In this document: positions 33,083 through 60,454 of the stretch, one piece after another
Layout: the number at the start of each line of letters is the position of its first letter
Numbering within the stretch: position 1 is the first letter of the stretch
Source of the DNA: Pseudogymnoascus verrucosus
Lineage: Eukaryota
Direction: 5' to 3' (one strand)
Assembly (NCBI GenBank): GCA_001662655.1
Contig: KV460234.1
DNA length: 64,000 nt
Position numbers and translations under genes: made by a program
Notes under the pieces: model-generated
Told to the model about the DNA's origin: nothing
The model's input: the letters and a program-made list of their open reading frames with translations, nothing else
Databases searched by the model: none

Positions 33083-33295
33083 ATCTGTGGAGGCCTTTAT
33101 AAGCCGACATAGGCACCTAACGGGCTATTCACCGGGAATCTGTTCGTCAACACTGTAACGAGTTTCCCTTGGAGCTGTCGTAATAAGTCGTCAATCAGAG
33201 ATAAATAAGACCAAGAATTCTCACACCTGTTCAAAGTATGTGATTAATGAGTGACTTTGCACTGATTCATTAATTGTAATCCCAGGGCTCCCATG

Positions 33296-35838: not shown

Positions 35839-36751
35839 CTGCATTCAAGCCCAAGTTTCTCACACCGCAAACATAAACCTAGACGGCCATCACATTTTAC
35901 CTGTCAATCTTAGCAACGACCAAGAACATCCGCATCGTTGGGTATCTTACTTTTCGAAAGCGACAAGTTGAGCATCCTACATTTCTCGCATCAGTACTGT
36001 AGCATTTTGTTAGAGCTAGACATACCAGTCATTATTAGACTAATTTATGAGGATCCTCATAGCAAATATCTTCCAACAGTAGCAGAGAAGTCATCCAGAG
36101 GAGTCCGGTAACTCGGTGTCAAGGCTAGCTTTCGCTGGTCACCAACTAACCCCTGTGGCATGGCGCCACCGCGGTTACCCCGCAAATACGCATCGATTCC
36201 ACGTTTATTGAATTTAAGTCAGGTGATATGGAAATTTTCCATCATAAATACTGTGCTTTCTATTTCACTGAGGGAATCGGTGTCATAGTATAATAGTAGC
36301 TATATTTTCATGGCGAAGCCGTGGACTCCTCTGGTCATTGTAGGGGTTCTTCGATAGCGCAGAGTTATTTACATCCCACGTGATAGTACAGGTGAACATA
36401 TGCCTGTCCTTATACTCCTATCAGTCTGTACGGCGTCTTTGTATCCGGTTCTTCTACGGCGTTTACTTTCCTCCAGAGGGCATAGTGGTGAAGCAGCAGT
36501 GTCACGCCATGGCGGCTAACTTGACGTCAATTGGAAATGTGGGTCAGCTTCGGATGTCGCGATGGTGGACGGATATCGGCGGACGGAAGTCGCAAAAATG
36601 GTAATTGCAACCTGGGTGGGTGATGAAAATAAAGATATTAATTGCAAATAAGACAAAATAAACAAGAGTATTCGCTTCTAATATACTTTAATAATACGTG
36701 AATCTTCAATCGCTATTTAGCTCCCCAGAAAGGCTTCTCATGTCCCAAATA

Positions 36752-38563: not shown

Positions 38564-39104
38564 TGTGATATATTTCCTGAGGGTCCAAGATTATTTGATT
38601 GACGAATATTTGGGAGCAAGTGAAGGGAATTACTGCAACTTATGTATCGCTCGGAGATGTCACAAACCAAAGACGCCATGGCGTGCTCTCCATCCAGGCA
38701 ACGTCGAGGATATCCGCCAACAAGGGAGCCATGCCTTCAACACGCGTTGACCTTCGTTCTAGTAATAATTTGGCGTTGCTGTCAGCGACCCATTTCATGC
38801 GGGGGCCTCCGTGCCAGGGGTAGCTGCAATCGGTAGTCTCTCTTTAGGGGCGGGCTAAGCTAGCGCGAGCGACATCCACGTCGTCGTTCGACGAGTTCCG
38901 AGATTCTCCACAGCGACTTCCGACGACGCTCGGCCGCGGTAGGTGCTGAAAATGGTGGTGGAGGCCGACTTCCATTTGGCTTCGGATGATAAGGGCTCCT
39001 TGAGTTACCCCTCAGGGTATCGGCAGTTTTATTGTGAGAGGGGTAAATATATATACTTTGGAGAAATCCTTCTCAACCTATAATTGTCAATTCTATGTAA
39101 TTAA

Positions 39105-41285
<2,181 letters not shown>

Positions 41286-41383: not shown

Positions 41384-43108
41384 TCACGTATTCCCCGTAT
41401 AATGACCTTGCGGCCCGGTCGTGAAATCTCCCCTCTGCTCCAAACTGCTCACTCTACCCAGTAAGAACTCCAACTGCCGATATGCAGCTCCTGGCACATA
41501 TTGAGGGATCATGTGCCCCGCCAAATTGACCGTGACGAACGTCAGACCTCTCTCTGTGTGCGTCACACCCTGGAAACCACCACCTGCCGTATCAGTGAAC
41601 ACATGTGTCTCAATACCGTTGGCGTACTGGAGGATCTCGCCGTTGGTTTGGTGGTACGGCACATAGAAGTTCTGCTCCTTGAAGGGCGACGTCTGGAAAC
41701 CCTGGGCGCCGTTCCAGGTCATGTTCTGGATGGAGATAAGGGACCCGTTGGCGAAGAGGAGGAAGTCGAGCATGCCGTGGCCGATGATTGTGTTGTTCGT
41801 GCGCTCAATGACGCTTGGGAGTGGGCCGAGACTGGACTCGATTGACTTGTCACCGTGAGGGAAGAGGTTGTCGCCACCTCCACAGACCATGTAGTTTGTT
41901 GGTGGCGCGTTGATGGCTTTCTGTACGTCAGTGCGGTTGAAGTAGTTATTTGGTCCTCCGGCCATAGATGGGAAACCGAGCAAGTTCCACTGATATGGGC
42001 AGTAATCTGTCAAGTGGTATATGTTGAAGCAGGGATTTTCATAGTATGCCGCGTTGTAGACCTCATCGAAGATATCACAGCCGGGCTCCTTCCAGCTGGG
42101 AGCGGCGGGGATTTTGCTAGATGGCGGGAACTCCGTGGTCCACTTGTTGAAGAAATCAGTGTATCCACAGCTATCTGCGCGAGCTGTGATGTTTGCAATG
42201 AAGCTCTCGTTCAAGTTGATCACATTGTTGAAGTAATTCAGCGCAGGCACAATAGGTGCTGCAATTGTTAGTTTGGTACTCTTTTGCTATGGATTGGAGA
42301 GTGCTTACCGTGGAGCAGGACGTCGTCTGTGTTGATGGAAGGGTCATTAATCTGAACACCCTTCACATTGAAGTACTTCTCGTCCTTCGTATCCAGCATA
42401 CCGCTCGCAATATATGGGATATACTGCCCAGCGTAACTTTCTCCCGTGATATATATTTTGTATCCTTGCATAGAAAAGGTATCAATGAAGTTCTTCCAGA
42501 AACCCATGAATTGCTCTGCAACATCGTTCTCGTCGTCAACGAGAATACTGCCGGGTGAGAAACCCGTGCTGACTGGCTGATCGATGTATATCATATTGGT
42601 AAGGTTAACCCATGAGTATGGGTTTGCGAATGGCGCATAGGTTCCGGGCTGCCATAGGAAAGGCCCATTTTCCTGGAACAGGCCGTCCAAGGAGCTGCAG
42701 CCTGGACCACCGTTGAGCCAAATTGTGATCTCCTTCTTCGCCGCTGGGTTCGAAGACGGAAAGAACCAGAACCACAATCTGTTTTCGTCATCTTTCTTGC
42801 TGGAAATCGGCAGGGTGCCCGCATACGACTCCCCAATATTGAAGTCCACCTCTGGCAATGCAGAGCCATTGACGGCGAATTCTAGACGTGATCAGCCACG
42901 GAATACTGGGAGCCAAGGGGCAAATGGTCATACTGGCAGTTTTCTTGTTCAGGAAGTGAGCAGAGTTCGCCGCACGCGATGCATGTTTTGATACCATGGG
43001 TTCCGCTGATCTCTTCTGCACATACTTTGCAGCCTTCTCGTGCGGGTTCTGGGCGGCTGTCACCACCGACGCAGCGAGGAGCAGCAAGAGAGCACGGATA
43101 GTCTGCAT
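41384..43108 (-). CDS. Secreted serine carboxypeptidase (S10)
   Basis: Signal peptide; [31 protein letters not shown]; 2 introns. Confidence 0.93.
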
Positions 43109-44286
43109 GATTGCCAGCACAGAATAGCCAAAGTATCACAACAGATGCAATTGGGATACAGAAATGATTTTGGAGATCGTCGACGTATATAAATGCATAT
43201 AGGTGAACGGAAGCTCACATGTATATTGCCCTATCAACAACATGCAGCACGTTTTCGTGTCTCTCTCATGATGATCATGGGCCACAGTTGCGGATCTCGC
43301 ACCCCTTCTAGGCATTGATCGCCGAGGCATCTTTGCTGGCTCCGTTGCGGCTAAGCTGTATGCGGCAGCTACTGAGACATAAACCATGGGTAAATGCTAT
43401 CGTTGCCTGGTGACAAGCAAAGGAAGTGGGGGATCTCGGTGTGTTGACGATGGGGAATCTCAAACGCAGGGATTAGTTCTGCGTTTGTTTCTTCGCTGTC
43501 CCCGCATCCCGTGTTTAACCTGCCTCATTCCGACAAGTGGGTGTAACGGGTAGCGGCACGCCAACGAATTGGCTTTCTCAAGCGGCATTGGCAAAGGCTT
43601 GAATTAGGGAGGCGGTAACTAATTGTCTGTGCATGCGGACATCCAACGCCTGCGTTGACTTTTGCGCTGAATATTGCGCCTTCGTGGCTGTACAGCGATC
43701 ATCGTCGTTCGCTACATCGGGAAAGTCGCTGGTTGGCGGGAGTCTCGGTCTTTCCGCGCAATAGGACGGGATGACGAAATGATGCATTCCCACCCACTAA
43801 TTATACAACGAATCGGCCAATAGGTTGAAAAGACAAACCGACCTTCCTAATTAGTCCAAAAATTGAAGGTATTCGGAAGCTTGTCTATGGCAGCGTCACG
43901 ACCATGAATGCTTGGTGAATGCCTAGTCTTTGGTATAATACTGCAAAGTTACCCCGGTTTACTACCATCTCAGCCCAAGTAGGGCTGTCAGACTTGCTGG
44001 CCGCAAATAGCCATGAAGGACATTGAGAATTTCCAAAGAGATGCTGTGCTGCAAAGTGCCAAGCTGGCTGAGTAACGATGCGAGTGACTCACAATATATG
44101 AAGTTATTTTTTCCAATTTGTTCGTTATAATGCAAGTCAACATCCATAACATCAGTGCAATGCAATCTGTCTGCACTTTAAATCCCCCATGCCGATAATG
44201 AGACTGAGAGGCATTTGCTTTACGAAAGCTTGACAAGAAGTCAAGAACCGACCGACTCCTTACACCATCCCCCGCACGATATCAAC

Positions 44287-44835
44287 ATGAGCAAAATATC
44301 GGAAGAGTGGGTATCATCGGCGCCAGGTGCCTCCGGGCGCAAGCTAATCCAGGTCCCGCTTCCCGTGTTGGAAGCCCTCGCAAACGGGGACCTTGAGTCT
44401 GCTAACAGCCTCTCCCCGCACCACCTAACGCCGTATCTCATCTCCAGCGAGTGCCGCGGCGTGTGGGGCATGCGGCGTGACCAGGTCACTGCTGACCCTG
44501 GGGATGGCGTTTGGGTGACTCGGCTTCTCGTGGACATGGCGACTGGCGCTGTGGTAGGTCGTGCGGGGTTCCATGGGCCGCCGGACCAGGTGGGGATGGT
44601 TGAGATAGGCTATGCCATTGATCATTTGTGTCGACGGCAGGGACATGCGCGGGCTGCACTTGAGATCCTCCTCGATATTGCTGCGGGAGACTCGCGCGTG
44701 AATGTCGTTCGTGCGTCAGTTCGGCCAGACAATCTGCCATCGAGGGCGCTGATTGATCAGTATGGGTTTACTGTGGTGGGCGAGCAATGGGACGATGAAG
44801 ATGGACTTGAAGTGGTTCTGGAACTCTTGTTGTGA
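44287..44835 (+). CDS. GNAT acetyltransferase (RimJ/RimL-like), intronless
   Basis: VGRAGFHGPPD, VEIGY, RRQGHA (acetyl-CoA motif A), N.PS..L...GF. Confidence 0.88.
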   Translation: MSKISEEWVSSAPGASGRKLIQVPLPVLEALANGDLESANSLSPHHLTPYLISSECRGVWGMRRDQVTADPGDGVWVTRLLVDMATGAVVGRAGFHGPPDQVGMVEIGYAIDHLCRRQGHARAALEILLDIAAGDSRVNVVRASVRPDNLPSRALIDQYGFTVVGEQWDDEDGLEVVLELLL

Positions 44836-45560
44836 TGAAGGGATCATCATGGAGTTGGAGAGCGACATGGAATCTCGGCGAGTCATTGACCGGCTCGGTG
44901 CCTCATCAGAGCCGTTCCACTTTCGGAAACAGATGGCATTATCGATTCTCGGGGCATCTGAGTGGACCCTAGGCGGTATCTCGACGATGAAAGCGAGTAG
45001 TTTACCTTCTAAATGGAACTGATTACCACAAAAATACTCTTTCGGTAACTCCATGTTCACGAGAATCTTCCTTAGCTTGTCGGACCCTAAAGGTCCAGAC
45101 ATCGCGAAAGCTCCATTGATCTTTGTTTTCTGCAGTGGGTGAACAACAAAGGCAAATTCATCTTTATTTACAAACAGTGAAGAAATCCGTTCCTGGGAGG
45201 GATGCAACATGTGGCAACCGGATGCAAAGGTAGATCTTACAATACTGACAAGTCAAGCAATCCAACACAATGTCATCCCGACGAGAGATATCGGAGGTGT
45301 TCCCTCGAACAATCGCTAATCTTACACGGCGGGAAGAGATTATCCTGCGGCACCATGACCGAGCACGGAGACGACTCCAGGCACGAGCAAGAAGCGGGAG
45401 AGATTCTGTGGAAACTGGCAATAGAGCTCGAACAGCCAATAACAGGGGCGTTCGATTTGGTCAGAGCAGGATTCCAGGAGACTAGAGGCAAGGTATGAAG
45501 AGAATTCACAGTCCCCAGAGCCCGTAGTCTCGCACAGGATCGTGGGAGGAGACGTGGATG

Positions 45561-46511
45561 TTAACGAGGATCTGATGTTCGATCGATTGCCTGCCCATTT
45601 AAAGGCCACGCGTTCTCGTCGTGAACGCTCCCTCGCACAGGCTGGGGTCGCTGGGGCTCGCCATCGCCGAGAACTTCTATTTGAAACTCCTGTGGCGCTG
45701 ACTGCCAGTAAAACGGATTTTTCGGGCCCTCCACATTGCCTCGATTGAAAAATGTGTTCTGCATACCTAGGAGGGAGGTGAATTCTGCTACCAGTTGATC
45801 GAGGGGCCGGTTTGTTATTCTCTCGAGTATAACCATCAAGGACATGAAGTTCAGGTCGGAGTACCGGAACTTGCTTCCCGGTGGATTTGTCAGCCCTTGG
45901 GTGACAATGGCCTTTATCTTCTCTTCATATGTCGGGTATATCTCAGAAAACAAAGAGGGCACAGGATCGGAAGCGAAGCCGCTCGTGTGGGTAAGCAGCA
46001 TTAGGATGGTAATGTTTGACTTGCCATTTACGGCGAACTCAGGCACGTATCTCGTCACCGTCTCATTCAATTGCAACGTTCCTGAGTCTATCTCTCGTAA
46101 AGTCGCAACGGTGATGTACATCTTAGTCAGGCTGGCCAGGTCGTAAATGGTATCGAGGTCGGCCGCCTCCTGTAGATGAGGCGGCAGCAACGTGCCATTG
46201 GCGTCCGCATACAGATTCTTCTTGCCGAACGCAAAGGCGCTGACAATGGTATTCTTGTGGCCGACAAGAACAGTTCCACCGGGCTCGATTGGATTAATCG
46301 CATCGAAAGAGAACCTGCCGTAGTCGGCCGGGGTGGTGTATGCTGTCAAATTGGCGATCATCTGCTGCAGAGGCAGAGGATCCATACCTACGGACTCTGG
46401 GGTACTGTAGCTAAGTATATTGCCATGATTAGCGCTCTTGGCAGCGGTAGGGTTTGCCGTCGTTTGGATAAGCACGAGGCTCGTAGAAGCAACTATGCTG
46501 AACAATCTCAT
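45561..46511 (-). CDS. Secreted beta-lactamase-fold serine hydrolase (AmiE/YbbE-like); appears 3'-truncated
   Basis: Signal peptide; YDLASLTK (SxxK), LLTHTSGF, YSDLNF, RGSVHDENAW; the expected GHAGLFS...HTG C-terminal third is absent. Confidence 0.8.
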   Translation of the reverse strand: MRLFSIVASTSLVLIQTTANPTAAKSANHGNILSYSTPESVGMDPLPLQQMIANLTAYTTPADYGRFSFDAINPIEPGGTVLVGHKNTIVSAFAFGKKNLYADANGTLLPPHLQEAADLDTIYDLASLTKMYITVATLREIDSGTLQLNETVTRYVPEFAVNGKSNITILMLLTHTSGFASDPVPSLFSEIYPTYEEKIKAIVTQGLTNPPGSKFRYSDLNFMSLMVILERITNRPLDQLVAEFTSLLGMQNTFFNRGNVEGPKNPFYWQSAPQEFQIEVLGDGEPQRPQPVRGSVHDENAWPLNGQAIDRTSDPR

Positions 46512-47171
46512 GTTGGTTTGGAGCCTAAAGCGTTTGTGATCGGTCGCTCAAACGTATGGGACTAAGCCTATGAGATAGGATTGAGACTCACGCAGTGGCA
46601 GCGGCCAGATATAAATATTCAAAGCTGGGAAGAACGATTCCTCTATTTTTACCTACATTAAGCGTCCCATTGGCACGACCTATCTATCTCCCTGCAGGAC
46701 CCCTCATTTCACTATCATAATTGAATATCATTAATACGAAGTAAGCTACAACTATGGCGTTCCTTGAACACTCTGCTCCGAAACTACGAAACTCCAATGA
46801 GTGCTCGAGTTTCATTGGCCTGTTAACATTGTCTACCCCACTTCCTTCTACATTCTCCGCTAGTTCATTCTCCGATGTCGTTCTTTGATTGTTTGCTCAG
46901 ACTCCGAATATACTAGACTAGCCACAATCTAGTCTAGCCTAGTTTTTTTAGTATGAAGTTTTGTATGTAGCGAACTGCGAGCTCCGAACTGCGACGTAGT
47001 ATGCACTAAAGCTACAAAAGGTAAAGCAGTACGTACTAAAACTGCGAACTGTAAACTTGTGGTTGGCAGGTTTAGGCAATACGAATATTTGAGATTAACT
47101 CAAGTTACCATCCACTGAGTAACCAACTTGCACTTGCTGAGTAGTTGATTAAGGGAATATACTTCACCAAG

Positions 47172-48426
47172 ATGCCTCAGCCCGAAACCATTGTAGTTGT
47201 CGGGTACGTGTTCCGCTATACTCTTCACTTACTCCCTCCCTTTCGTTCCCAGCCTTGATCTTGTCAAGAACTGTGCTGACTAATCTCTCCGTTAGAGCTG
47301 GAGTGATCGGCCTTAGCACTGCTCTGTGTATTCAGCAGCATTTGACGCCCTTGCAATCGGTCGTCATCGTTGCTCGGGATTTTCCCAATACCACTTCAAT
47401 CAATTATGCCACTCCTTGGGCAGGTGCCCATTATCGCCCTGTACCTGGCCAAACTCCCCAAATAGTCCAGGAGGCAGCCTGGGCAAAACGAACGTACGAC
47501 GTATTCCAACACATCGCCGCTGAAGAGCCCGCTGCGAGTGGTGTGCAGTTTTTGCCTGGAGAGGAGTATTTGCAGAAGCCGCCACCGGAGTATCTGGATG
47601 CGGTGGCGGATGTTTCGAAGAGCGCTTATGGGCATCTTCAGGGGGGGTTCGAGCGACTCAGCCTCGATGAGATTCAAAATTCTGCTGTGCGTCTAGGCAT
47701 TCGGTACTGGACGTACTGCGTTAACTCGCCCGTGTACGCAGCATATTTGTTACGGAAGTTTGTCCTCAAAGGCGGCCGGACTAGAGGATATACGCTGGCT
47801 GCGCTAGACGAAGCCTTTTTGTTAGAGCCGAATGTGACTACAGTGGTTAATTGTTCTGGTATGGGCTTTGGAGATCCGAAGTCGTTCATCATTAGAGGTA
47901 TGTTCCGTCCCTTAACTTGCCTGGTTGGTGTATCTGCAAGCGTCATCAGTGGAAACTAATTTTGCTCGCAGGTCAAACTTGTCTTGTCCGCAACAGCTGC
48001 TCGAAGACCATCACCCATCAAAATTCCGATGGATCCTGGTCATTCGCGATCCCTCGGCCGCTCGAGGGTGGTACTATCATTGGTGGCACCAAACAGCCCC
48101 ATGATTGGAATCCGAACCCCATGCCGGAAATCCGACAGACTTTATTGTCAAACGCAGCAAAGTGGTTTCCTTTTGCCTCTAGTACGCCACAGACCTTTGA
48201 TGTAGTTAGGGACATTGTGGGACGCCGGCCAGCGCGGGAGGGCGGGTTTAGGCTCGAAGCTGAAACTATTGGTGTGGTAGGTGCAGATGGATGTAATAGA
48301 ACTCGTAATGTTATCCATGCGTATGGCATTGGAGGCAGAGGAGTCGAATTATCTTGGGGGATTGCTGAGGATGTCGCAGGATTATTGCTGGGGAAGGGAA
48401 TAATAACGGAGAAGGCATTGTTGTAG
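47172..48426 (+). CDS. dao: FAD-dependent D-amino-acid / D-aspartate oxidase (introns 47204-47295, 47898-47971)
   Basis: VVG-AGVIG Rossmann motif, WAGA, VVNCSG.G, RGQ, GRRPAR, HAYGIGGRG.ELSWG. Confidence 0.9.
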
Positions 48427-48750
48427 TCTATTGAAAGCATTGAGCAAGAGGTTTTGGATTGCAACTCGATGCTACTGTTATGGATTTAAACTCATGAGAT
48501 CTAGTGCCTAATTCCTTCTCTAATTGTCTGGCAAAGGGTTACAGTTATCAAAAGCTATTCTGTTTGCCGTTGTGGAGTGGATCTACGGCTTGTGGTGTAC
48601 CTCTAGGATAGAAATAAATACGGCACCTTACTTACGTCTTATTTTAATAACAATTTAAACCATAAATGACAGTGTATGATTACATTGAAATTATACAAAT
48701 GGAAACTGAATCCGATTGCTAGTACAATCCACGTATGGACATGCTATTAT

Positions 48751-50868
48751 CTAAATCTTTGGGGAGATGCCAAGTTTCTCATCCTCGGTGACAGCCAGAA
48801 GAGAACCCTTAGACTTTTCCAGCACCGTATCTGTGACGATATTACCCGATACTTCTGTCGTCAGATGATAGTCACCGCTCTTACTGAGTGTGTACTCTTC
48901 CTTGTCAATGTGGCGGAACGTAAAGTAGAATACAACAGTAAGGATTCCTCCTGCGATACATGGTCCACCAAAATCCCAGGTTAAGTAGGGGTCCTTTATC
49001 ACTGACGAGCAAGCCAGGCCAATAATATATGCGATTGAAGTGTTGAAGAGATTGAGGGCCATGACCAAGCCTCTCATATTCTTTGGGGCACGAGAGTAAG
49101 CTATACCATAGGCCGGAATATTGATAAATAGCTCAGAGATACCACCAATGGCATATGGCAGTGCTATCCACTAATATTTTGTCAGCAGGGCATTCTGTAG
49201 TGCACTATGATTCCTGATAAAACAAGGATACATACCCAGATAGTAATAGGAGCAACCAAAGAGACGCCATTCGCATCAACGCAGGTATTGCTCGTACCAA
49301 ACTCTTTGCACGGTCCCAACTTGTATGCATAGTAGTTAAGCAAAGTGTATCCCATGCCGCCTATTGTGGACATAGCGAGGCCAGTAGTGATACGAGCGAC
49401 TGGGCCATAATGGATATTCTGGCGGCGTAACAGTGGGTAGAGTCCATAGTTAATAATTGGAGCAAATAAGATAATACTCAATGAATTAAAGTTGCTGATA
49501 ACATCGTTGGGTACCCCATTAGTCGTCAACATTGTCGACAAAAAGCTCGCAGCCTGGCCAATACCATTATCATTAAGATACTGGATCGGGAAGAAACTGA
49601 AAATGCCCGCAGCTTGGAATGTACGGCGAACATCGTCAACAAATTCATCATTCCACCTAGTAGGGATATTGAGTCCACGGGTCGCAATAACGGACGGCTT
49701 AGCAGATTCCCAAAATCCGCGTCTTCCTATCTTCATGATACCACCGTGCCTTAGACAAATGCCCAGCACACGGAAGACATTAGGAAGGTCGCTGCCTCCT
49801 GGTGGGAAGAGAATGAGACGTTTGCGGATCCAAAACTGTAGGAAGATCAGTTTCAGTACATATAGCATCTAGACTAAAATTTAAAGATTTCAAAGTGACT
49901 AAATTTAAGCCATCGGGCAGACAAAGGAGAGAAGGGACGTACCATTAGAAAAGGAAGCGGAAGATACAAGAAAAGTGGCAGTACAAACGCCAACCACCAT
50001 CCTACATACTTCTCTGAGTATGCAGTAGCCACTGCCATCATTCCGCCAATATTAATCATGAGGTAAAACCAGGTCATGGTTCTCTCCGTAGTTGCCTCAG
50101 GATCAATAATGACCCTTTCGCCGCTTTTTAAGACCTTTATCTTGGGTACCGTATGAGGGTTTTGATCAAGAAGTAGCGGCGCGATATTTGGTTTGAACAT
50201 AGCTGCAGGGCCAAAGTCAATACTAGTGCATATATGGGGAAGAAGCTTCATACCAGTGCCGATAGACAGAATATATACAGAAATGAAGAATGGGATTTTA
50301 GCACCACCGCTAGCCAAAAGTGATGGCGCAGTAGAGCCGACCATTAACACATGGGCGATGCCAAAAACAAGAATGCCCCAGCAAATAAGCTTGAAGCGTC
50401 CGGTATACACATCCGATATGTAGCCAAAGATAAGCGGAAGACCATACGCCAACATGCTGAACGACTGATTTACAGCGTTCGCCTTGACTGTCCCTAGACC
50501 GAGTGCTCCGGCAGTTTGCTGAGTTCCGCGTGGGGGGGCGCCATAACCATTTCCACTTACAGGCATTGGCCGATTAATAAAATTGCTGATCAAAGATGAG
50601 ATGCCGTAGTAGGATGCACGTTCAGCGAATTCGATAGCGCAAAGAAAGTAGGCCGCGACAGGAAGGCTTCCGGGCACACGGCGAAGGGTGGCCTTCTCCT
50701 CTTCCGTAGGAATGTCTCCGTGCTCGTCAATTGTCACATCAAAAACTTGGACATCGCCAGACGAAGATGTCCCCTTCTCATCAACAAATTGGTCAATATC
50801 TTTGGTAGCTGTGGATTGTCAGGAAATATTTCTCCGCGGGGACGTTTAAGTCACGAAAGCTCACCCAT
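48751..50868 (-). CDS. ptr2: POT/PTR2 di-/tripeptide transporter (4-nt first coding exon)
   Basis: EFAERASYY (ExxER), FYLMINIG, YSRAPKNMRG; ATGG|gtgagc...cag|CTACC gives MATKDIDQF. Confidence 0.93.
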
Positions 50869-51310
50869 TACAACGTCTTCGATATGGAAGAGGATATGTC
50901 TAAAGATGCATGTTCTGAATGGCGACTAGAAGCTATATAAGTTGTCTGGTTGAGTGTATCCCCTGCTATAGATACAGATACGAAGGGACACCTGCCAGGA
51001 CTCTCGCTGTATTAGGAAGGTGAACTGTATTTCGGAGACTGCGTAATCTATACCATAGTAAAAGAGTATGGTAAGGAGCTAAATAGTAACTATCTAGCTA
51101 TCATTGTGCCTTTTCACTAGCGGTCAGACTATGGGTTTGGAATGACACCTCTAGTAGTCGGATCGGGTATCATTTACGGCCCTTGTTGTTTAAATTGGTG
51201 CTAAAAGGAGCTTGGGTCTAGATTTTGCCGGGGTAATATGCAAAAAGTTACACTTGTAACTCGTAGCACAAGAATTCCCCGAGTTATGAAACCTAGATGG
51301 GCGTTTAAGT

Positions 51311-51400
51311 CAGCAATCCTGGTCCGCCGGAGCTCATAATCCTGGTTCGGAGCTGCTTATCCTAGTGTCGGAGCTGACAATCCTGGCTCGGAGCTAGTAA
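51311..51400 (+). repeat. Tandem array of four ~20-bp units AATCCTGG(N)TCGGAGCT in the ptr2 / NlpC-P60 divergent promoter
   Basis: aatcctggtccgccggagct, aatcctggttcggagct, tatcctagtgtcggagct, aatcctggctcggagct. Confidence 0.9.
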
Positions 51401-51598
51401 CTGGAATTCACACTTTGGCAACCAGATAAGGAATGACAAGATTATTCCAACTAACAATATCTTTAGTATCGGAGCTATATTCGACCTCTTAAAGTTGCAA
51501 GTGACAAGAACCAACAAGTAATAAATACCATCTAATGGTCGTCGTTTCTGATTTCATGTCCAGCACCTCAAGCCTAGTTCTAAACAAACAAAACAAAG

Positions 51599-52621
51599 AT
51601 GATCAATATTATTTTCGCTCTCGCTTTGGTTAACCATGTGGTCACCGCACTCCCATCAATAGTTCTTGAGCGTGCGACAGCTGCCAAGCAGGTTGGGTAC
51701 ATCAGCGTCTCAGTTGCAACGCTATGGACCACTTCCAGCAAGCCGCGGCCATTGGTTGATGCACCCGCTCTCACAAACCCAGCCGATATCGACGGTTGGT
51801 TGAGCTCAATGAATGTCAGCCAGTACCTAGATCTCACCGACAAAAGCCGTACCCAGACACAAGCACTTTACGGCGCTCAGGTTGGCATTATCAGCGAACA
51901 GGACGGATGGTATGAGATTGAAGCTATAGGCCAGCCAACACCAAAGGATCCCATTGGCTACCCAGGCTGGGTTCCAACAGCTCAAGTGTCGCTCGACTCT
52001 AGCTACGGCAAGCTACAGTCGAAAAACCCCTTTGCAGCGATCAACAAGGTGGCCACCGCACCACTATACCGCGATGCTCTGATGAAAGAGAAATATCTCG
52101 AAATCTCCTACGACACGCGCCTACCAGTGATAGCACATATTGGTAGACTGATCCAAGTTGCAGTGCCCGGTGGAGGCTCAGCATACCTGTCTGCGAATCA
52201 TGCTACTGTGTACGGCTCAGTTTCAAATATCCCATATCCTACTGGAAATGACCTCGTTAAAGCTGGAAAGCTGTTCCTCGGCCGCCCCTATCTCTGGGGT
52301 GGCGCATCAGGCTTTGCCTTTGACTGCTCTGGGTTAACGCATACTCTATACGATGCACATGGTATCACGATTGCTCGCGACGCAGGCTCCCAGGCGGACT
52401 TCACTGGCCATGGAACAAATGTTGCTCGGTCTGATTTGCAAGCTGGAGATCTTATGTACTATGCCAGCAACATTACCAGTTCAAGTAGCATCTATCATGT
52501 TACAATGTACATCGGGAATAATGAGATGATCGAAGCCCATGGTGCTGGAATACCAGTGAAAATCTCCCCGGTTCGCTTCGGCGACGATTATTGGGGTGCA
52601 CAACGGTTCCTAACCCATTAG
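51599..52621 (+). CDS. Secreted NlpC/P60 (C40) peptidase, YkfC-like gamma-D-glutamyl endopeptidase, intronless
   Basis: Signal peptide; VSVATLWT and TQALYG N-terminal region, GYPGWVP, PYLWGG.SGF.FDCSG (catalytic Cys), RDA..Q, HV.MY.G...MIE. Confidence 0.9.
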   Translation: MINIIFALALVNHVVTALPSIVLERATAAKQVGYISVSVATLWTTSSKPRPLVDAPALTNPADIDGWLSSMNVSQYLDLTDKSRTQTQALYGAQVGIISEQDGWYEIEAIGQPTPKDPIGYPGWVPTAQVSLDSSYGKLQSKNPFAAINKVATAPLYRDALMKEKYLEISYDTRLPVIAHIGRLIQVAVPGGGSAYLSANHATVYGSVSNIPYPTGNDLVKAGKLFLGRPYLWGGASGFAFDCSGLTHTLYDAHGITIARDAGSQADFTGHGTNVARSDLQAGDLMYYASNITSSSSIYHVTMYIGNNEMIEAHGAGIPVKISPVRFGDDYWGAQRFLTH

Positions 52622-53633
52622 ATGTGTTGATATTTCCGGGATTGAAGGGGATTAAGGAATATACTAGTCTTGGTCAGATAGTATATACCATAAATGATGT
52701 TGCTTGGAGAGTTGTTATATATTAGACAATAATATATTGATTCTATTTTTTACAATCTAATCATTCAGTTTTACATTGTCTGTCCCCTTTCGTAATACCT
52801 ACTGCTTATATGACTGTGAGTTTTTCTGAATTAAACGTCACTTCTGGACCGTACCTTACGGAATAGCATATGAAGAAGCATTGTAGTTGTTTTTGGTTAT
52901 GAGGAGAGGTGCGGAATAGCATATGACGGAAGTGTGCATAAGATCACACGTGCCAGACAAACTCCACAGATCCACAAAGGCCTCATTATAATCACTGGGC
53001 TAGTAGTCGACATCACTAAGGGGCATCCGTTTCTCGCTCGAGCAGAAATAGTCCCGCTCCAACTCTTCACACGCAATATTTTTCGTTGAGACATACACCA
53101 ACCACACCTTCAACATCGTGGTCACACAGCTGATAGAGTCTGTCGCCAGTATCATTTTCATTGCTTCCGACACCCCTTAAAAAATCCAAGTGAAGGGATA
53201 GCTTTGAAGCAGGGGTGCACTCGTAGCTGCAAAAGGCCTCTAAAGTGAACAGCCTCTGATAGTAACTTCACAAATGGGTTGGCCCTAAGAGTTTGTGACA
53301 CAGTGGGACTTTTAGCAGATACATCTAGACTAAATCGGAGCAATACTACCGCAATCACGAAAGGCTATGGAAGGCAGCGCAATATCAAGGGTCTCCCCCA
53401 TTGTCCAAAGCGCACTAGTTCGTGCATCTTCATCGCATAATATAACTCAGTTAACATTGCGGGTTTTAGACAATGCTGAACACATCTTTCTGATGAAGAT
53501 GCGCTGCCTCTGCTGTTAATTGGTTACCATGAAAATAAGTATTACAAGGGCTCACTATGATAAGGTCCTCACACCTGCTTCTTTGGCCTTGATTTGATGT
53601 GAATGTTCATTGCCCCTGAGTTGACGATTACAT

Positions 53634-53732
53634 TCCGAACCAGGATTACGAGCTCCGAGCCGGGATTGTTAGCTCCGACACCAGAATTGGCAGCTCCGAA
53701 CCAGGATTACGAGCTCCGGACCAGGTTTGCTG
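53634..53732 (-). repeat. Reverse-complement copy of the 51311-51400 array (five units) upstream of the proline iminopeptidase gene
   Basis: Reverse complement reads aaacctggtccggagct, aatcctggttcggagct, aattctggtgtcggagct, aatcccggctcggagct, aatcctggttcggaa. Confidence 0.9.
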
Positions 53733-53943
53733 GAACCTAAACCCCCCAACTTTGACAGCAGCCTGGAAGATACTCATGCTGATAGCATGGCGTCGTTCCA
53801 TCCTCTGGTTAACGATATTAGAGAGTTATATCCGCAAGCGAGTTCCATATCCAAGTCGATTTTTTTTTCTTCATTATATCTATCCTTTTTCGGTCTTGTT
53901 CCTATGTTAGACAGCATACCAATTCGAATTGCTAAATTTTACA

Positions 53944-55058
53944 ATGGCTTCACCGAGATGCATTCCTGGATACGCCCATGAGGATGCTTTTGATGATGGC
54001 TTCCTTGATGTAAGCTCCATCCATACGTTATATTATTCACAGTATGGCAAGAAGGATGGCAAGCCAGGTAAGTGAACAACTCGTGATAATGTCGCTTTCT
54101 AAAACCTTAACAGTACTCTATCTACATGGTGGTCCTGGCGGACAAACCGGGAAAGCCAATACTGCTTATTTCGACCCTGCTGTCTATCGTGTCGTGCTCT
54201 TCGATCAGCGAGGCGCAGGCAAGTCCACTCCAAATGCAGAACTCCGCGAGAACACGACGGAGTTCATCCTCAGCGATATCGAGGTTCTTCGCAAGCACGT
54301 TGGCATTCCAAAATGGCACTCCGTATTTGGTGGTTCCTGGGGTTCTACGCTGTCGCTACTCTATGCACAAGAGCATCCTGAACTCGTTAGCTCTCTTATC
54401 GTCCAAGGCATTTTTACTGTGCGAAAGGAAGAGCTCGACTGGTCTCGACGTGCTGGGGCGGCGCGCATCTTCCCAGACCTGTTCGATAAGTTCATTGACC
54501 ACTTACCTGAAGAGGACAGAGACACTCCATATACAGGGTATTACAAGCTGCTCACAGCCAGCGATAGGGAGACGCAGATCGCTGCTGCGAGATCGTGGAA
54601 TACGTGGGACATGTCTATAGGAACAATAGAAGTGAACCAAGCTAGCCTCGAAAACATTAATGATGATAATTGGTCACTATCGCATGCATTGCTAGAATGC
54701 CACTATTTTATCAATGGAGCTTGGCTAGAAGATGGCCACATCTTAAAGAAGAGCAATTTGGATAAGATCCGCCACATTCCAAGTATATTATTGCGAAACA
54801 AAGCACTGATTAATGCACTTGCTAACTAAAATACAGTGACAATCATCCAAGGGAGATATGATATTATATGCCCTCCTCAGACTGCCTATGATTTGCATCA
54901 AGGATTACCTGAATCTCGGTTGTGTTGGGTTCCAGACGCAGGCCATTCAGCTAGTGTAAGTGACTTCCACCTTTAAACGACCCTTGTGCTGACATTGTAA
55001 GGAACCCGGAATACACCGCAAATTGATTGAAATTTGTGACGAATACGCCCAGATTTGA
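53944..55058 (+). CDS. pip: Proline iminopeptidase-family (S33) aminopeptidase, cytosolic (3 introns)
   Basis: LHGGPGG, FDQRGAGKS.P, GGSWGS, QGRYD..CP, AGHS; introns 54068-54113, 54783-54836, 54956-55001. Confidence 0.92.
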
Positions 55059-55487
55059 TATCAGCCATGACGAATAGAGGAATTTTGCTATGCATCTACG
55101 ATTTATGGCATTTTTACCATGGTGAAGGTTGCCATGTATAGTTTTGCTAGTCAAGAATCAAGTTTTGGTATTGGTAATATTACCATAATTGAACCCTACT
55201 GTGCAAGCTATGATTTGCTTCGGAGAACACCTTCTTACGTTTATGACGCAGCGTTGAAATCGTTCGAGCAGTCGCATGGATTATACTAGTGCAGTCATTA
55301 TTAGGTACTAAGAATTGTGCTTAACACACGTTACATTATCTTGGACCTGGTTACCTGCCATTTGTCGCCCCACTAAAGCTGCCACTGCCCATCCCCCCGC
55401 TGCGGGGTTACATATCCCTATCCGGCTATGTTGTGCCTATCTCCTGTCTTTGGTTTGTGGAGGTTGTGCATAGGTGATCCTACATTT

Positions 55488-55720
55488 TCAGTCATTTCTT
55501 ATATTAGAGACTGTAGTCTTGAGCTCGTTGAAGTACGTCGGTTTCTTGTTTTCCATCTCGCCGAGGTAGCCTCTGTCGATAAGGCAAGTTAGGGTGACTG
55601 TGTTGTCGTTATACACGATGTCCGAAGTCTCACATTTATCCCATGGCTCTGAATTAGAATATTCTAGGGGGTGCCATAATAAACATAGCGATGTGGAATT
55701 CTCCAATCCATAGTATCCAC
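55488..55720 (-). pseudogene. Fragment resembling the C-terminal PD-(D/E)xK-like domain of large fungal proteins
   Basis: HP.Y....W...ETSDIVY.D...LT..L.DRGYL......PTYF.ELKTT with no intact upstream gene. Confidence 0.45.
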
Positions 55721-55982
55721 AGCTACGCTTGTATTTCTCCGTGCATCCCGTTGACAACCTCCCCACCATAACTTCCGCGAATTCCGCGACACGCGGTTCC
55801 TCAAGCATAAATCTCGAATGTACGTGCCTATCTGTCTTGCACAAGCTATGTTTGCCGCGCAACTCCGTTATCTATTCCTCTTCGTACTAGATAATTAGAT
55901 AAGGTTAACCCACTTTTTCCGAAGTACCCCACTCTCTCCGATCCTCCGCTCCGACTTACAAAACCGCACTCACGCCGGAGTA

Positions 55983-58346
55983 ATGTCATTGAGCCATTCA
56001 AGCAGGATGAAGAAGCGTCTAAGGGCTTCTTGTGATCCCTGCAGAGTTCAAAAACTCGCATGCGATCATGTGCAGCCAGTCTGCTCTCGCTGTGAGCGAA
56101 AGGGGAACGCTGCTGCATGTTTCTATCGCGAGAACCCCTTCAAGCGCTCGAGGCCTTCAGTCGCTTCTCAGTCGCCGAGGAGCCAGGTGTAAGCATGCGC
56201 TTTGCATTCAAGATCGTTCCGCTTTTTATAGCCCGTTCTAAAGCCCATTTATAGGCTGTCTCCTCCAACCGTGCCCTTATCCTCTCCAGCACAAGCCCGG
56301 CTATATCCCAACCCAGGCTTCCTCGGGTCGTCGTCTTTTGAGGCGGTCGTACACGAACTTAATGATGAGAATCAACAATGCATAACTGCACCTCTAGGCT
56401 CTGAAAACACAAGTCTAGCCAGAGAAGTTGCCCGATCCACCGCTCAATTCACCCAGGATCTTCAACGAATACAAAATGGGGCAGACGTGCTAACCCTTGC
56501 CTTAAACCTACGGAAGCTTAATGCGACGAAAATACTATTTTCCGAATGGGGAGGTCACAGCAGTGACCAGTTTCTAGGTTCCACATGTGCAACTCTCTTC
56601 CAAGAGTCTTTCTCCGCCGATATGGCTGAGATTGAGCAAAGCACCGATCAAGTGAATGGCGTCCTTTCCATGTCTCGCAGGTTGTTTGATAATAGCACCA
56701 AGCCCTTCGACATTAGTGATTCAATGAGTGTGAAGGAATTCTATTCTCTCTACACCGCATCAAACTTGCGCTGGGAGACCATTGGTATAATAATAACATT
56801 CATTGGGTAAGTAGCACAGTAAACCGCGCTGTTATGGAACACCCTAACATCGTTAGGATGATCGCGATAGAAAACAGACACTGGCAATCAATCGATTCCA
56901 CAGAGGTAGAACGACAGCGCCTCATTTCAAAACTGGTTGAGGCAAGCGATACCTGCCTGCTATTTTGCGAGACCTTCGACAACCTAAACGACATGCACAT
57001 CACGCTGCTTCATCTCAACTTCCTTCTACATTCCATGTTCGATGGAGACCAAAGTAGGAATCCACGCCCTTAATGTGGCTGTAGAACTCACAGCCCTAGG
57101 TTTCAAGACGTGGCGCCGGTTGCACGATGCCATCAGTGCGTTATTTGCGCTTGGTCTCCACGAAGAGCTCGTCGAAGGCCCCAAAACACCCTTTTTTGTG
57201 GTCCAACTCCGAAAACGCATATTTGCGAGGATATATGGAGCGGATATAAGCTTCGCGACGTTTTTAGGCCGCCCGCCGAGAATAAGCAAACGCTTCTGCT
57301 GTATTCACGTTCCGCTTGATCTGGAAGAGGAAGTATATGAGTACGGAAGAGAAGAAATAATCACTGAGATGCAGCAGATTGACAGCAATGGTTGGAATAC
57401 CAAAGGAGAGATTAGGAAACATGCGGGTCGACGATGGTCAATGATACTCGCAACAATTACAGAGGATATTTTAGAAGTCCTGCTAGGTCGGCACCCGACA
57501 AACGTGCCCGATACTATATCGTAAGAAGTCCTTCACGTTGATGATACGTAGCTAAACTCATCACAGCAGGATTAGAGTAGAGTGTGAAGCGGCTTGGGAT
57601 TCTCTACCAGCCATGCTCAAGAGTCCGAGAGAATCTTTATGGCACAGCGGCTATTCACCCAAACAGCTTGATACTCTGATCTTAGTCAAGCTCTTCTACC
57701 TTCATACTTTATTCCTGGCGGAGAGAGCTCTTTCACGTCATACTCGGGAGATCAGTTTGGGCTCCCTGTCAACTGCCTATGAGATGCTTTGCTGGGTGAA
57801 TGATGCAATGATACGGAGAGACAGGTTATCAACATTTGCGCACACTTCGTTAGCTTGGAGAGTAGGTTACTTGCGCTCTTTCCCCGAGTTTTGCTAACAA
57901 GACACAAGGTAGCATCTTTTGCTCTCCCCGCCGCCGGTGTCCTTGCGCTGAATCTTCTGCGCCACGCCAGCAATAGTTTCCTTCAACGACATGAAGCTGT
58001 GTCCCGAATGCAGATTATAGAAGGGCTTTCCGTACTCACAGCACACCTCGATGTTTTGTTTGAGCCCGGTGATGGGAATTATCAGCTATTCTGTGAGGCT
58101 AAACGTGTACTACAGTCAATCCTAGAGATCGCGATCACGCCAGCTGCGCAGAGGCAGGTTGATGGCCCCTTTTCTGATTCTGCTGTGGGATTCAGTGAGG
58201 CGGACTGGGAAAGTTTTGACCAGTGGGGATTCGATAGCGATTTCTGGTAGGCAATATTGCTCCAAAATATCCTTGCTGTACTGATTGTATGCAGGTCAAA
58301 TCTTGGGGATCACCCGCTGCTCGCTTCTGAGATGTACGATGGGTAG
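55983..58346 (+). CDS. Zn2Cys6 transcription factor (multi-exon); candidate cluster regulator
   Basis: RASCDPCRVQKLACDHVQPVCSRC......CFY; LRWETIG, ALGLH, FLGRPPRI, GDGNY. Confidence 0.9.
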
Positions 58347-60454
58347 AATGAATGGAAAGAGGCTAGATGGCTTTGTTGTGTTGATATCTGTGCTGTTTCG
58401 TTTACGCTGAAAATTGGTTGAAGTATGTGAGAAATACGCTCAGCTTTAATAATAGTTATAATACCCACTATTATTATATATTGTTGATATTTATTTTTTA
58501 CCTGCATTCTAATTTTTTTTAGTTAGAGGCAAGATAGAATTAAACTTGATCTATTCAACTGCTTCACTAAACTGCTTACAGCTGCTACGGGGTGGACGAC
58601 TGCGAGGAGACGGAGTGACGGGAGGATAGGTGGAAGGAAGCAAAAATGTGATCGCATATAAAGCTGTGGTGGGCGAGATGCAGCGTGCAAGGGGTTCGAG
58701 ATCTAGATCACGATCTTGCGTTGCATCTGGGCAGGAGGCCAGGAATGCATGTGTGTGTATAGATCTAGATTTCATAAGGCTTATTTTGGCGGTTTAGGTG
58801 TGTATTTGTATTACCCACCTCTCCCTACTCAATGGCCGAGTTACGTTCTTTGCGCCTCCGCGGCTATGGAGATACAGTTTCGTGATATGGTTTGCTATGC
58901 AACTATCATAGGTGGGAGAGGAGGCGGAAAGAAACCGAGGAAAAAATACGACAATACGAGTAGAAGCCAGACAGCGAGAGGTTATCGTGGGGGAGTGTAG
59001 AGCCAGGGCCAGGAGCGAGGTGACGCAGCACCGGCATCACGCATGATCGGCGCAGGGACCTACAAGCGCAGGATCTCGATCTCGATCCCCCAATCACGCG
59101 GGCGAGCACGCGAAGGGGTTGTAGTGAGGTGTGCGAATTTCTTCTCTACCGGTGCTACGAGGGAGGTGCGTGGGTTAATCTGAGACAATTGAATCTCAAA
59201 CAAACATTCCACATAAAAAGCATTCTATCCTCACGTGGATTTGTCAATTCACAGAATCCACTCAATCCCAACAATTCAAGCGTGCGCGTCTCTTTTACGT
59301 CTCCTACCAAGACTCTACAAAAACCGCCGCGATCCGGCCTTGGGATCTTACCCAGATCTCCCCAAATCTCTCCAGATCGACCTCCACCGCCACCCAGATC
59401 GACCTCCACTACCCGGGCCCGAGTACCCAGAAATCCCAAACCTTACCCCAAAATCCAATAAAAACCCCAAACAATCCCGAGAATCTCAACTTTCCAAACC
59501 GAGTATATCCAATAAACCCCCAAAACGCAGGCAAACGAAAGAAATGGGGATGCGTCTGATGAATGTATGGATACTCTTTCGGCGAAGTACATAAGCCACC
59601 GAACAAAGCATAAACGCGGGTAGCCGTGGAAAATACGCCATATAAGCTGAGATTAGTTGGGGGTGCAGTATCGATGTTTCACTGCGGAGGGTAGCTGCGA
59701 GTTTGGAGGGTGGGGACATGGCGTTTCTAGGTGGGGGGAGGGGGAGGGAAGCTATAGAATGTTTGAGAATGAGACATTCCACCACACGGGGGGTGAGAGG
59801 GGAGATGATATGCAACTCTATCCTGGTTATGAGAGCACGCATGCTGTCTGTCTGTTTAGGATTCGGTATGGTCATTAACTTAGACAGCCATGCCGGGTTG
59901 AGAAGATAGAGAGAGCTATCCCTACATCTCCCCCCGCACAGCGTCTGCACTCCCCCATAAATATCCGAAAGAGCTACGACAGATGAGGTGTCGTGCCTTA
60001 CACTATGCTGTGTCGATCAGCTAAGCAGTAGTCGTTTAAACAGATCAAGACACTTGCAGAAGCTGTGTCCCAGAGTGCTTGGCTGACGACGAATGGGAGC
60101 GGAGCAGCTAAGGGGGTATGATGGTGGAGTGGAAATACTTGGAAGGGGCTGGAATATAGTATAGAGATAGATACTGCGATGTAGTGACGTGGTAGCACGA
60201 CGTATTAATGCTATGCATTAAGCTCAGTTTATCTAACAGCAAAGAGTAGCACATGATACTCTCGACGTTAGGGGGTAGGATTGGGAGGGTAATGAGTTGG
60301 AATGCACCTACACAAAACCAAGGCGTAGACATCTGTGTAACGACTATATAAGATGAGTAAGAAACTCCATCGTAACTAACATCTTAAAACCAACGTCTCT
60401 CCGGCCCACAAGAGCCGCCGCAACAAATACCGAGCGTGACAAATATATCACCAC

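Follow-up and report, generated by a model that had tools for sequence, protein, structure and literature searches.

A large pool of the organic nitrogen in soil consists of peptidoglycan. The closest described systems for the use of its free stem peptides are the Bacillus ykfABCD and Bacillus cereus ykfBC-oppA genes. In B. cereus, a gene for a peptide-binding protein adjoins ykfC, and it has been proposed that the signal-peptide-bearing YkfC cuts extracellularly and that L-Ala-D-Glu is then imported. The catalytic triad of this enzyme is Cys238/His291/His303, and its L-Ala-gamma-D-Glu ligand is contacted by Glu83 (backbone), Thr84, Tyr118, Tyr226, Trp228, Asp237, Ser239, Arg255, Asp256, and Ser257, of which Tyr118 and Asp256 bind the L-Ala amine and constitute the signature of the YkfC subfamily. 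An enzyme of this type cannot attack the intact cross-linked wall (these statements follow the accessible part of PMC2954226). Here, we describe a 64-kb stretch of Pseudogymnoascus verrucosus DNA (assembly GCA_001662655.1, contig KV460234.1), the whole of which is called the window, in which a gene for an apparently secreted YkfC-type protein lies beside a gene for a PTR2 di/tripeptide transporter. We think it fairly probable that the two genes form a functional module for the cleavage and import of murein peptides, set in this genus among neighbours of uncertain membership.

The uptake of wall fragments by a fungus has been described. Candida albicans senses peptidoglycan fragments and takes them up via OPT transporters (Opt4), and its growth on a peptidoglycan fragment as the sole nitrogen source requires its peptide transporters (PMC12284242, accessible part). 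The NlpC/P60 proteins treated in a paper on mites, including ascomycete homologues, are single-domain or RipA-like and lack Asp256, Glu83, and Tyr118 (PMC4600878, accessible part). A survey of D-amino-acid enzymes transferred into eukaryotes raises the possibility that D-amino acids in soil come from peptidoglycan, and its accessible part mentions neither NlpC/P60 proteins nor gene adjacency (PMC5169069). In the full-text literature covered, which leaves subscription journals largely outside, we did not find any account of a fungal YkfC-type gene or its link to PTR2, of a dedicated fungal route for stem peptides containing D-amino acids, or of a fungal cluster of this kind; an earlier note on this DNA, made from the sequence alone, had said the same of the cluster.

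The NlpC/P60 product of the window carries PF18348, PF23795, and PF00877 in that order, corresponding to an N-terminal pair of SH3b domains and an NlpC/P60 domain at the C-terminal end. Its residues 33-338 (306 residues) align with residues 9-310 of the 311 in the B. cereus YkfC chain (3h41), and this full-length match (E 2.9e-75) bears out the YkfC-type assignment made in the earlier note. Cys243 and His300 align with the catalytic Cys238 and His291, while Glu312 occupies the position of His303. The other aligned residues are Asp242, Ser244, Arg260, Asp261, Tyr121, Tyr231, Trp233, and Thr87. Conservation has been assessed in 121 sequences, namely the window protein and its 120 best database matches. 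Cys243, His300, Asp242, Arg260, Tyr231, and Trp233 are invariant in this set, as are both signature residues, Asp261 and Tyr121 (121/121), while 118 of the sequences have Glu312 and 114 have Ser244. Several other Pseudogymnoascus strains have proteins with 87-93% identity to this product. Judged by eye, its N-terminus is signal-like, with a short run of hydrophobic residues, and the Oidiodendron and Blastomyces homologues show the same feature. By family, therefore, the gene is predicted to encode a true YkfC-type gamma-D-Glu-diamino-acid endopeptidase.

The adjacency of this gene to PTR2 has been followed in other genomes by reading consecutive locus tags or accessions as neighbouring genes. 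This reading is supported by the V501 tags 05116 to 05119, which reproduce the order of the window from the serine hydrolase gene to YkfC. The YkfC and PTR2 tags are consecutive in 11 of the 11 Pseudogymnoascus genomes in which both are listed (V502, V495, V499, O988, V501, VE02, VE03, VF21, VE00, VE04, and V490). Outside the genus, they are consecutive in six of eight genomes: Onygenales sp. PD_40, PD_12, and PD_10, Emmonsiellopsis sp. PD_5 and PD_33, and Coniochaeta sp. 2T2.1, the last in both of its copies. The synteny check suggested in the earlier note is thus answered positively for this pair, but the hydrolase is not consistently near YkfC. Likewise, the claim of a cluster stands for the pair, found in three classes; the linkage of the oxidase, the S33 aminopeptidase, and the Zn2Cys6 factor to the pair has been followed only within the genus.

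The trees of the two families match this adjacency. PF00854 covers profile positions 47-383 of 392 over the three PTR2 exons, and full-length fungal homologues are 70-94% identical over one exon. All ten YkfC-adjacent PTR2s and the PTR2 of Blastomyces parvus form one clade, both with FastTree (89 rows, support 100) and with IQ-TREE (31 rows, 100 in the Shimodaira-Hasegawa-like approximate likelihood ratio test, SH-aLRT). This clade stands apart from a second, housekeeping Pseudogymnoascus PTR2, which is also present in P. destructans, and from other Sordariomycete PTR2s. A common group, though less well supported (SH-aLRT 87), is also formed by the YkfCs of the paired genomes and those of Oidiodendron and Blastomyces. 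Since the linked PTR2s form one clade and the paired YkfCs group together, one PTR2 paralogue and YkfC appear to have been inherited, or to have moved, together. Conserved adjacency and matching trees show that the neighbourhood of PTR2 and NlpC/P60 is more than chance. As a separate observation, P. destructans may lack the pair, as among annotated proteins it was found only in the housekeeping PTR2 cluster and all named members of the YkfC and linked-PTR2 clusters are from non-destructans Pseudogymnoascus.

Among the best 120 matches, fungal YkfC is patchily distributed, being present in Pseudogymnoascus, Oidiodendron, Blastomyces/Emmonsiellopsis (Onygenales), several Penicillium, Zasmidium, Coniochaeta, and Hypocreales, with Purpureocillium, Pochonia, Lecanicillium, and Amphichorda as further genera. 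The next-best named matches after the fungi are Pseudonocardiaceae and Nocardia (Actinobacteria), at 50-55% identity. A single branch separates the 20 named fungal rows from the four named Actinobacteria, with a support of 99 in FastTree (119 rows, after two rows shorter than 290 aa had been dropped) and an SH-aLRT of 98 in a tree of 25 rows. A scan of metagenomes with the YkfC protein returned only 11 distant bacterial relatives (27-38% identity) and no fungal contigs, patterns from a single protein being too specific for this purpose. Taken over the best 120 matches, some of which are unnamed metagenome rows, the data fit a single old transfer, with YkfC being of bacterial (actinobacterial-like) ancestry and long resident in fungi.

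In the proposed mechanism, for which we infer the substrates and the direction of flow, the secreted YkfC-type cysteine peptidase would act outside the hypha on free stem peptides, cutting the bond that joins gamma-D-Glu to the diamino acid. Its substrates would be only peptides with a free L-Ala amino group that are already off the glycan. The dedicated PTR2 paralogue would then import what this cleavage yields, namely L-Ala-D-Glu and the diamino acid, the latter either bare or carrying D-Ala, and the fungus would thereby obtain nitrogen and carbon from the debris of bacterial walls. The prolyl aminopeptidase of Pseudogymnoascus would probably be co-regulated with the pair, possibly by the adjacent Zn2Cys6 factor. 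The oxidase, of the D-amino-acid oxidase/D-aspartate oxidase (DAAO/DDO) family, could dispose of imported D-amino acids, and an intact PBP4B/YfeW-like hydrolase could supply free stem peptides.

Several observations weigh against this two-gene reading; those that concern the flanking genes are given with these genes below. His290 and Arg306, which have been proposed to contact the diamino-acid carboxylates in B. cereus, are replaced in the window protein (His290->Tyr, Arg306->Gly, beside Ser257->Ala and His303->Glu) and, because of these two replacements, its S1'-side specificity may differ from that of B. cereus YkfC. The closest PTR2 is not a neighbour of YkfC in Oidiodendron maius or in B. 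parvus, the gene of the latter being incomplete and located on a contig of 26 kb. The pairing counts leave out Penicillium, Hypocreales, and Zasmidium, and the five Onygenales genomes are close kin, so that the pair is represented by about three independent lineages in three classes. Ptr2 and Ptr22 of C. albicans did not take up MurNAc-dipeptide (N-acetylmuramic acid, MurNAc; PMC12284242, accessible part). Finally, the region is rich in factors, transporters, and hydrolases, and a transporter or factor nearby is unremarkable. The case therefore rests on the conservation of the pair and not on the adjacency of the six genes.

This richness also invites a reading in which the locus is a general neighbourhood for scavenging peptides and nitrogen, comprising PTR2, the prolyl aminopeptidase, the oxidase, an S10 carboxypeptidase, and the factor, with YkfC perhaps acting on other gamma-D-glutamyl peptides. 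PTR2 and a prolyl aminopeptidase would suit proline-containing di- and tripeptides, and both genes have the repeat array described below. The S10 gene lies 3 kb upstream of the block, the window holds many hydrolases and transporters and three Zn2Cys6 factors, and the changed S1' residues of YkfC fit this alternative as well. However, the Asp/Tyr signature and the residues that bind the D-Glu carboxylate are kept in 121 of 121 sequences, murein-peptide genes stand beside the bacterial relatives in 32 of 80 loci, and a separate PTR2 paralogue clade travelling with YkfC would be unexpected. We regard general scavenging as quite unlikely.

It has also been considered that wall fragments are trimmed and imported as signals, or are removed from bacteria that recycle or sense them. 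The signal-like N-terminus of the enzyme, conserved in fungal homologues, agrees with such an extracellular role, as does the uptake and sensing of peptidoglycan fragments by C. albicans (PMC12284242, accessible part). On the other hand, no receptor or signalling gene was found in the block with Pfam, and interference by lysis is disfavoured since the YkfC type cannot attack the intact cross-linked wall and hence is not bacteriolytic (PMC2954226, accessible part). The pairing with an importer and the catabolic enzymes nearby fit nutrition better, and sensing or interference appears very improbable. The cleavage and import of murein peptides by the YkfC-PTR2 pair thus remains the preferred reading, and the neighbouring genes are weighed below for their membership.

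The six adjacent gene families named in the earlier note have all been confirmed, by Pfam on long open frames and by NCBIfam, between 45.3 and 58.3 kb of the window (Table 1). The Pfam families are Beta-lactamase, DAO (in two exons), PTR2 (in three exons), NLPC_P60 with SH3_YKFC_2nd and SH3_16, Abhydrolase_1/Hydrolase_4, and Zn_clus with Fungal_trans. The gene models were made by joining exons by hand into a single open frame per gene. The oxidase and hydrolase genes are transcribed divergently, as are PTR2 and YkfC, which have a 730-bp intergenic region in common. The GC content at third codon positions (GC3) of YkfC is 0.504, compared with 0.47-0.51 for the intron-bearing neighbours (2-5 introns). 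No sizeable open reading frame (ORF) was found in the 1.3-kb spacer 52622-53943, and Rfam gave no families within 44000-59000.

Table 1. Features of the block and of its surroundings in the window (aa, amino acids; TRF, Tandem Repeats Finder; PWM, position weight matrix; FAD, flavin adenine dinucleotide).
Feature	Position	Strand	Details and evidence
PBP4B/YfeW-like beta-lactamase-fold serine hydrolase gene, 3'-truncated	45561..46511	-	316 codons; Pfam PF00144; NCBIfam PBP4B family-level match; tblastn
Segment replacing 3' part of hydrolase gene	45260..45594	.	335 bases; contig comparison with related strains
DAAO/DDO-family FAD oxidase	47172..48426	+	362 aa, 2 introns; Pfam PF01266; PDB matches
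PTR2/POT di/tripeptide transporter	48751..50868	-	612 aa, 4 introns; Pfam PF00854 in three exons; trees
20-bp tandem repeat array, ~3.3 units, PTR2/YkfC divergent promoter	51327..51400	-	TRF, motif searches, alignment, inverted-repeat search, PWM
Predicted secreted YkfC-type endopeptidase (SH3b1-SH3b2-NlpC/P60)	51599..52621	+	340 aa, intronless; Pfam PF00877, PF23795, PF18348; 3h41 match
20-bp tandem repeat array, ~4.6 units, ~200 bp upstream of S33 gene	53634..53743	+	TRF, motif searches, alignment, inverted-repeat search, PWM
S33 prolyl aminopeptidase (predicted)	53944..55058	+	322 aa, 3 introns; Pfam PF00561, PF12146; TIGR01249
Zn2Cys6 transcription factor	55983..58250	+	670 aa, 5 introns; Pfam PF00172, PF04082; one open frame
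S10 serine carboxypeptidase	41387-42891	-	directly upstream of block, 3 kb away
GNAT acetyltransferase	44182-44832	+	directly upstream of block
Alginate lyase PF08787	32225-33079
Zn2Cys6 factor	33986-35844	-
Sugar transporter	36755-38455	-
Sulfatase	39105-40737

In the earlier note, all six genes were joined in one pathway, with amidase-like release of stem peptides by the hydrolase, cleavage by YkfC, import by PTR2, hydrolysis of L-Ala-D-Glu by the S33 enzyme, oxidation of D-Glu or D-Ala, and control by the Zn2Cys6 factor. We consider this unlikely, although parts of it find some support. The order hydrolase-oxidase-PTR2-YkfC is kept in five of eight Pseudogymnoascus genomes by locus tags, and two other strains (X3 and X4) have contigs that run colinear with the window throughout 45595-58830. 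In a third and closest strain (X2), 46300-58768 is inverted relative to the window, with one break inside the hydrolase gene. The inversion is seen in two contigs with reciprocal opposite-strand joints (46295/58771 and 46300/58768), and the inverted block runs from inside the hydrolase gene to ~500 bp beyond the factor gene. Against a fixed association, the hydrolase gene is far from YkfC in three of eight Pseudogymnoascus genomes and in Penicillium lagena and P. riverlandense.

The bacterial relatives of YkfC provide the strongest argument for the hydrolase. One genome per prokaryote species was scanned with the YkfC alignment, giving 80 loci that were all searched with tblastn; an earlier pass with longest ORFs and Pfam had missed most PBP4B-like neighbours, as antisense ORFs in GC-rich DNA displaced genes. 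A PBP4B/YfeW-like beta-lactamase-fold gene lies within 600 nt on the same strand in 17/80 loci (11 upstream and six downstream; Mycobacterium and uncultured Actinomycetota), operon-like with YkfC, and farther away or on the opposite strand in five more. An Amidase_2 MurNAc-L-Ala amidase gene is found 19-44 nt downstream in three loci of Nocardia, and an MR_MLE epimerase of the YkfB type (L-Ala-D/L-Glu epimerase) directly upstream in 12 loci (Firmicutes, three Streptomyces, and one Nocardiopsaceae), so that murein-peptide genes stand beside YkfC in 32 of the 80. Because PBP4B-like genes alternate with an unrelated family, a known MurNAc-L-Ala amidase, in the same slot beside YkfC, which itself depends on amidase-released peptides, their products may be suggested to act upstream of YkfC. 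By analogy, the fungal PBP4B/YfeW-like hydrolase could supply free stem peptides where it is intact. The link between hydrolase and YkfC claimed in the earlier note is therefore supported by the bacterial loci and fails in the three Pseudogymnoascus and two Penicillium genomes mentioned above.

PBP4B is the best model for both the fungal and the mycobacterial protein, which are 29% identical over 407 residues, and the intact orthologue P0121 scores 168 bits on it against a cut-off of 385, which makes this a family-level match only. Over all bacterial PBP4B-like proteins, the identity to the fungal hydrolase is 29-35%. This low identity, together with the wide occurrence of the family in fungi without YkfC, gives no indication of a co-transfer of hydrolase and YkfC. 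The bacterial protein closest to the fungal one (34% over ~405 residues, E 1e-64) comes from two Gammaproteobacteria metagenome-assembled genomes (L044 and L047), in which its gene is 3.9 kb from YkfC on the opposite strand. The hydrolase family is widespread in Pezizomycotina (Aspergillus, Talaromyces, Penicillium, Xylaria, Sporothrix, and Fusarium, with the source name "UPF0214 protein YfeW"). The window gene is intronless with a GC3 of 0.60, above that of its neighbours, and its own origin may also be bacterial. Bacillus AmiE, to which the earlier note compared the hydrolase, is presumably a member of the beta-lactamase fold; one paper names it only as a MurNAc-L-Ala amidase. NF002968 matches the B. 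subtilis and Escherichia coli control genomes without a named locus, which does not place AmiE in the family.

In the window, the hydrolase gene itself is broken. The encoded protein is 98% identical to V501_05116 of Pseudogymnoascus VKM F-4519 and has the signal-like N-terminus, the SxxK motif, and the VHDENA stretch noted earlier. Its frame, however, stops after 316 codons, while the 98%-identical orthologue P0121 has 443 aa and matches the window by tblastn only over its residues 1-306. The 64-kb window contains no tblastn match to residues 307-443 of P0121, the part with the SGHAG stretch and the HTG box, and a permissive tblastn with the last 148 residues of P0121 found nothing further there. 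The third K/H-T-G motif of a complete S12 fold is thus absent. As the lost part holds this active-site motif, the hydrolase product of this genome is most likely inactive, and the hydrolase described in the earlier note is represented here by a 3'-truncated gene.

Contigs of X3 and X4 continue from 45595 into the missing part of the hydrolase frame, which is intact in these strains. The segment 45260-45594 is common to X2 only; contigs of X3, X4, and X6 end at 45259 and restart at ~45595, leaving it uncovered. Among other strains, the annotated hydrolase is full length (443-444 aa) in four and short in two (230 and 189 aa), contig ends being a possible cause of the latter. The truncation, the further break by the X2 inversion, and the two short copies weigh against the six-gene pathway. 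Relatives of the oxidase, the S33 enzyme, and PTR2 were found in none of the 80 bacterial YkfC loci. A co-transfer of any of these from bacteria has been rejected on this basis, and the fungal genes would therefore have been recruited to the neighbourhood. Alpha/beta hydrolases beside YkfC in three bacterial loci have also been rejected as a parallel to S33, being PcaD-like and not prolyl aminopeptidases.

A shared repeat connects the S33 gene to the pair. A 20-bp repeat occurs within the window only at 51328-51395 and 53634-53725, as found by Tandem Repeats Finder. The two arrays are homologous as blocks, with variant units in the same order, and constitute a 74-nt inverted repeat, 89% matched, that flanks YkfC. 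They face the outward genes, at ~460 bp from PTR2 and ~200 bp from S33. A position weight matrix (PWM) made from nine units gave seven matches of at least 14.2 in 128 kb (both strands), all in the arrays, three before PTR2/YkfC and four before S33. As its promoter contains the same 20-bp array, the S33 gene is probably co-regulated with PTR2/YkfC, and the adjacent Zn2Cys6 factor may bind to the arrays. This is a point in favour of the wider pathway as far as S33 is concerned. The PWM scan, however, showed the array to be absent from the oxidase/hydrolase and factor promoters, with scores of at most 12.7 between oxidase and hydrolase and nothing notable before the factor. The en-bloc inverted duplication around YkfC means that the arrays could instead be the relic of a rearrangement or of a mobile element.

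The arms of the inverted repeat, 51327-51400 and 53646-53719, enclose a 2.2-kb segment with YkfC only, an arrangement that resembles terminal inverted repeats around a cargo gene. A lone AGCTCCGAAC at 46980 was considered as a further repeat site and is not backed by the longer motif.

The S33 gene belongs to an aminopeptidase family, as claimed in the earlier note. A single exon, covering 229 of the 307 profile positions, reaches 257.2 bits on TIGR01249, just under the cut-off of 259.75, so NCBIfam points to a prolyl aminopeptidase. The product has a GGSWGS stretch and no signal-like N-terminus. Murein stem peptides contain no proline, and action of this enzyme on L-Ala-D-Glu would be a hypothetical side activity, which counts against its place in a six-gene pathway.

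In its PDB matches, the oxidase resembles human D-aspartate oxidase about as closely as it does the D-amino-acid oxidases of Rasamsonia and Rhodotorula. A GAGVIG stretch (FAD-binding GxGxxG) is found at the exon 1/2 junction and the carboxylate-binding Arg is kept, aligning with Arg285 of the Rhodotorula enzyme, a numbering that agrees with the chain offsets in the alignments. Phe and Lys stand in place of the active-site Tyr223 and Tyr238 of that enzyme, unlike what is expected of a DAAO for neutral substrates. This Lys aligns with the Arg in the GGT-R-Q stretch of human D-aspartate oxidase, which we take to be the side-chain binder. The specificity may have moved toward acidic D-amino acids such as D-Glu, and this Lys is to that extent in favour of the six-gene pathway. 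The DAAO/DDO family claimed in the earlier note is thus upheld, but with both tyrosines replaced the oxidase does not appear assignable to D-Ala or D-Glu.

For the Zn2Cys6 factor, exon 4 matched a representative library with at most 61% identity. None of the ten best representatives (those named being from Penicillium daleae, Niveomyces, Phaeomoniella, and Fusarium) is from a genome that bears the pair; the nearest named relatives are thus in fungi not seen with it, which counts against the six-gene pathway, though as a test of linkage the comparison is uninformative. Two one-base indels of X2 in the factor gene fall within predicted introns. By position only, oxidase and factor are plausible members of the neighbourhood.

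The farther parts of the window contain esterases, MFS transporters, and a histidine acid phosphatase. As a side observation, the alginate lyase, Zn2Cys6 factor, sugar transporter, and sulfatase genes at 32225-40737 may be a second small cluster for sulfated or uronic polysaccharide. A G run ~70 long (91% pure) is present at 9555-9624, near a run of 18 T at 9523-9540.

Beyond the pair itself, a wider scenario can be put forward tentatively, as possible though doubtful in its entirety. The locus would be a eukaryotic counterpart of murein-peptide recycling built around an actinobacterial-like gene, and the YkfC-PTR2 unit would predate the split of the three classes or have passed between them. 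Pseudogymnoascus would have added the PBP4B/AmiE-like hydrolase family that flanks mycobacterial YkfC, a D-amino-acid oxidase would replace the epimerase, and necromass peptides would be a targeted nitrogen source.

What is new here is a conserved fungal module that would cleave and import murein peptides, bacterial YkfC systems and fungal fragment uptake being known already. A conserved endopeptidase-importer pair would give a fungal stem-peptide route a genetic handle, one that is open to direct study with two genes and defined substrates. If true, it would be a clear case of a horizontally acquired enzyme that is coupled, both physically and evolutionarily, to a paralogue of a host transporter. 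The gene neighbourhoods in fungi and mycobacteria also add an argument that the role of the YfeW-like hydrolases of fungi, which are uncharacterised, is related to murein.

Trichomonas vaginalis reportedly holds laterally acquired bacterial NlpC/P60 genes. The acquired NlpC/P60 genes of other eukaryotes (T. vaginalis, house-dust mites, and ascomycetes with single-domain homologues) resemble the window gene in their bacterial origin. The single-domain or RipA-like enzymes are thought to act on wall-bound peptides, as far as the accessible part of the source goes, while the YkfC-type protein of the window is linked to an importer and would act on free stem peptides. C. albicans resembles the reading proposed here in that a fungus imports wall fragments by peptide transporters, but these are of the OPT and not the PTR2 family, and the accessible part of that account describes neither a dedicated stem-peptide peptidase nor a gene linkage.

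The closest non-fungal relatives of the window YkfC are in actinobacterial loci (Mycobacterium-like and Nocardia; L018-L048 and L086), at 45-57% identity. As in the fungal locus, YkfC and a PBP4B-like serine hydrolase are found together there. In the actinobacteria, however, the two genes share a strand and are separated by 120-371 nt, while the distance in the fungus is 5 kb and includes two other genes. The Bacillus ykfABCD and B. cereus ykfBC-oppA systems share with the window protein the three-domain architecture, the catalytic Cys and His, and the Asp/Tyr signature for a free N-terminal L-Ala, and B. cereus YkfC also has a signal-like N-terminus and a neighbouring peptide-uptake gene. It differs in the third residue of the triad, which is His in B. 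cereus and Glu here, and in His290 and Arg306, which are replaced here. The Bacillus systems use a bacterial ABC importer (Dpp/Opp), whereas the eukaryotic host here has a PTR2 (POT) paralogue, and the L-Ala-D/L-Glu epimerase is not next to the fungal YkfC, a DAAO/DDO-family oxidase being nearby instead.

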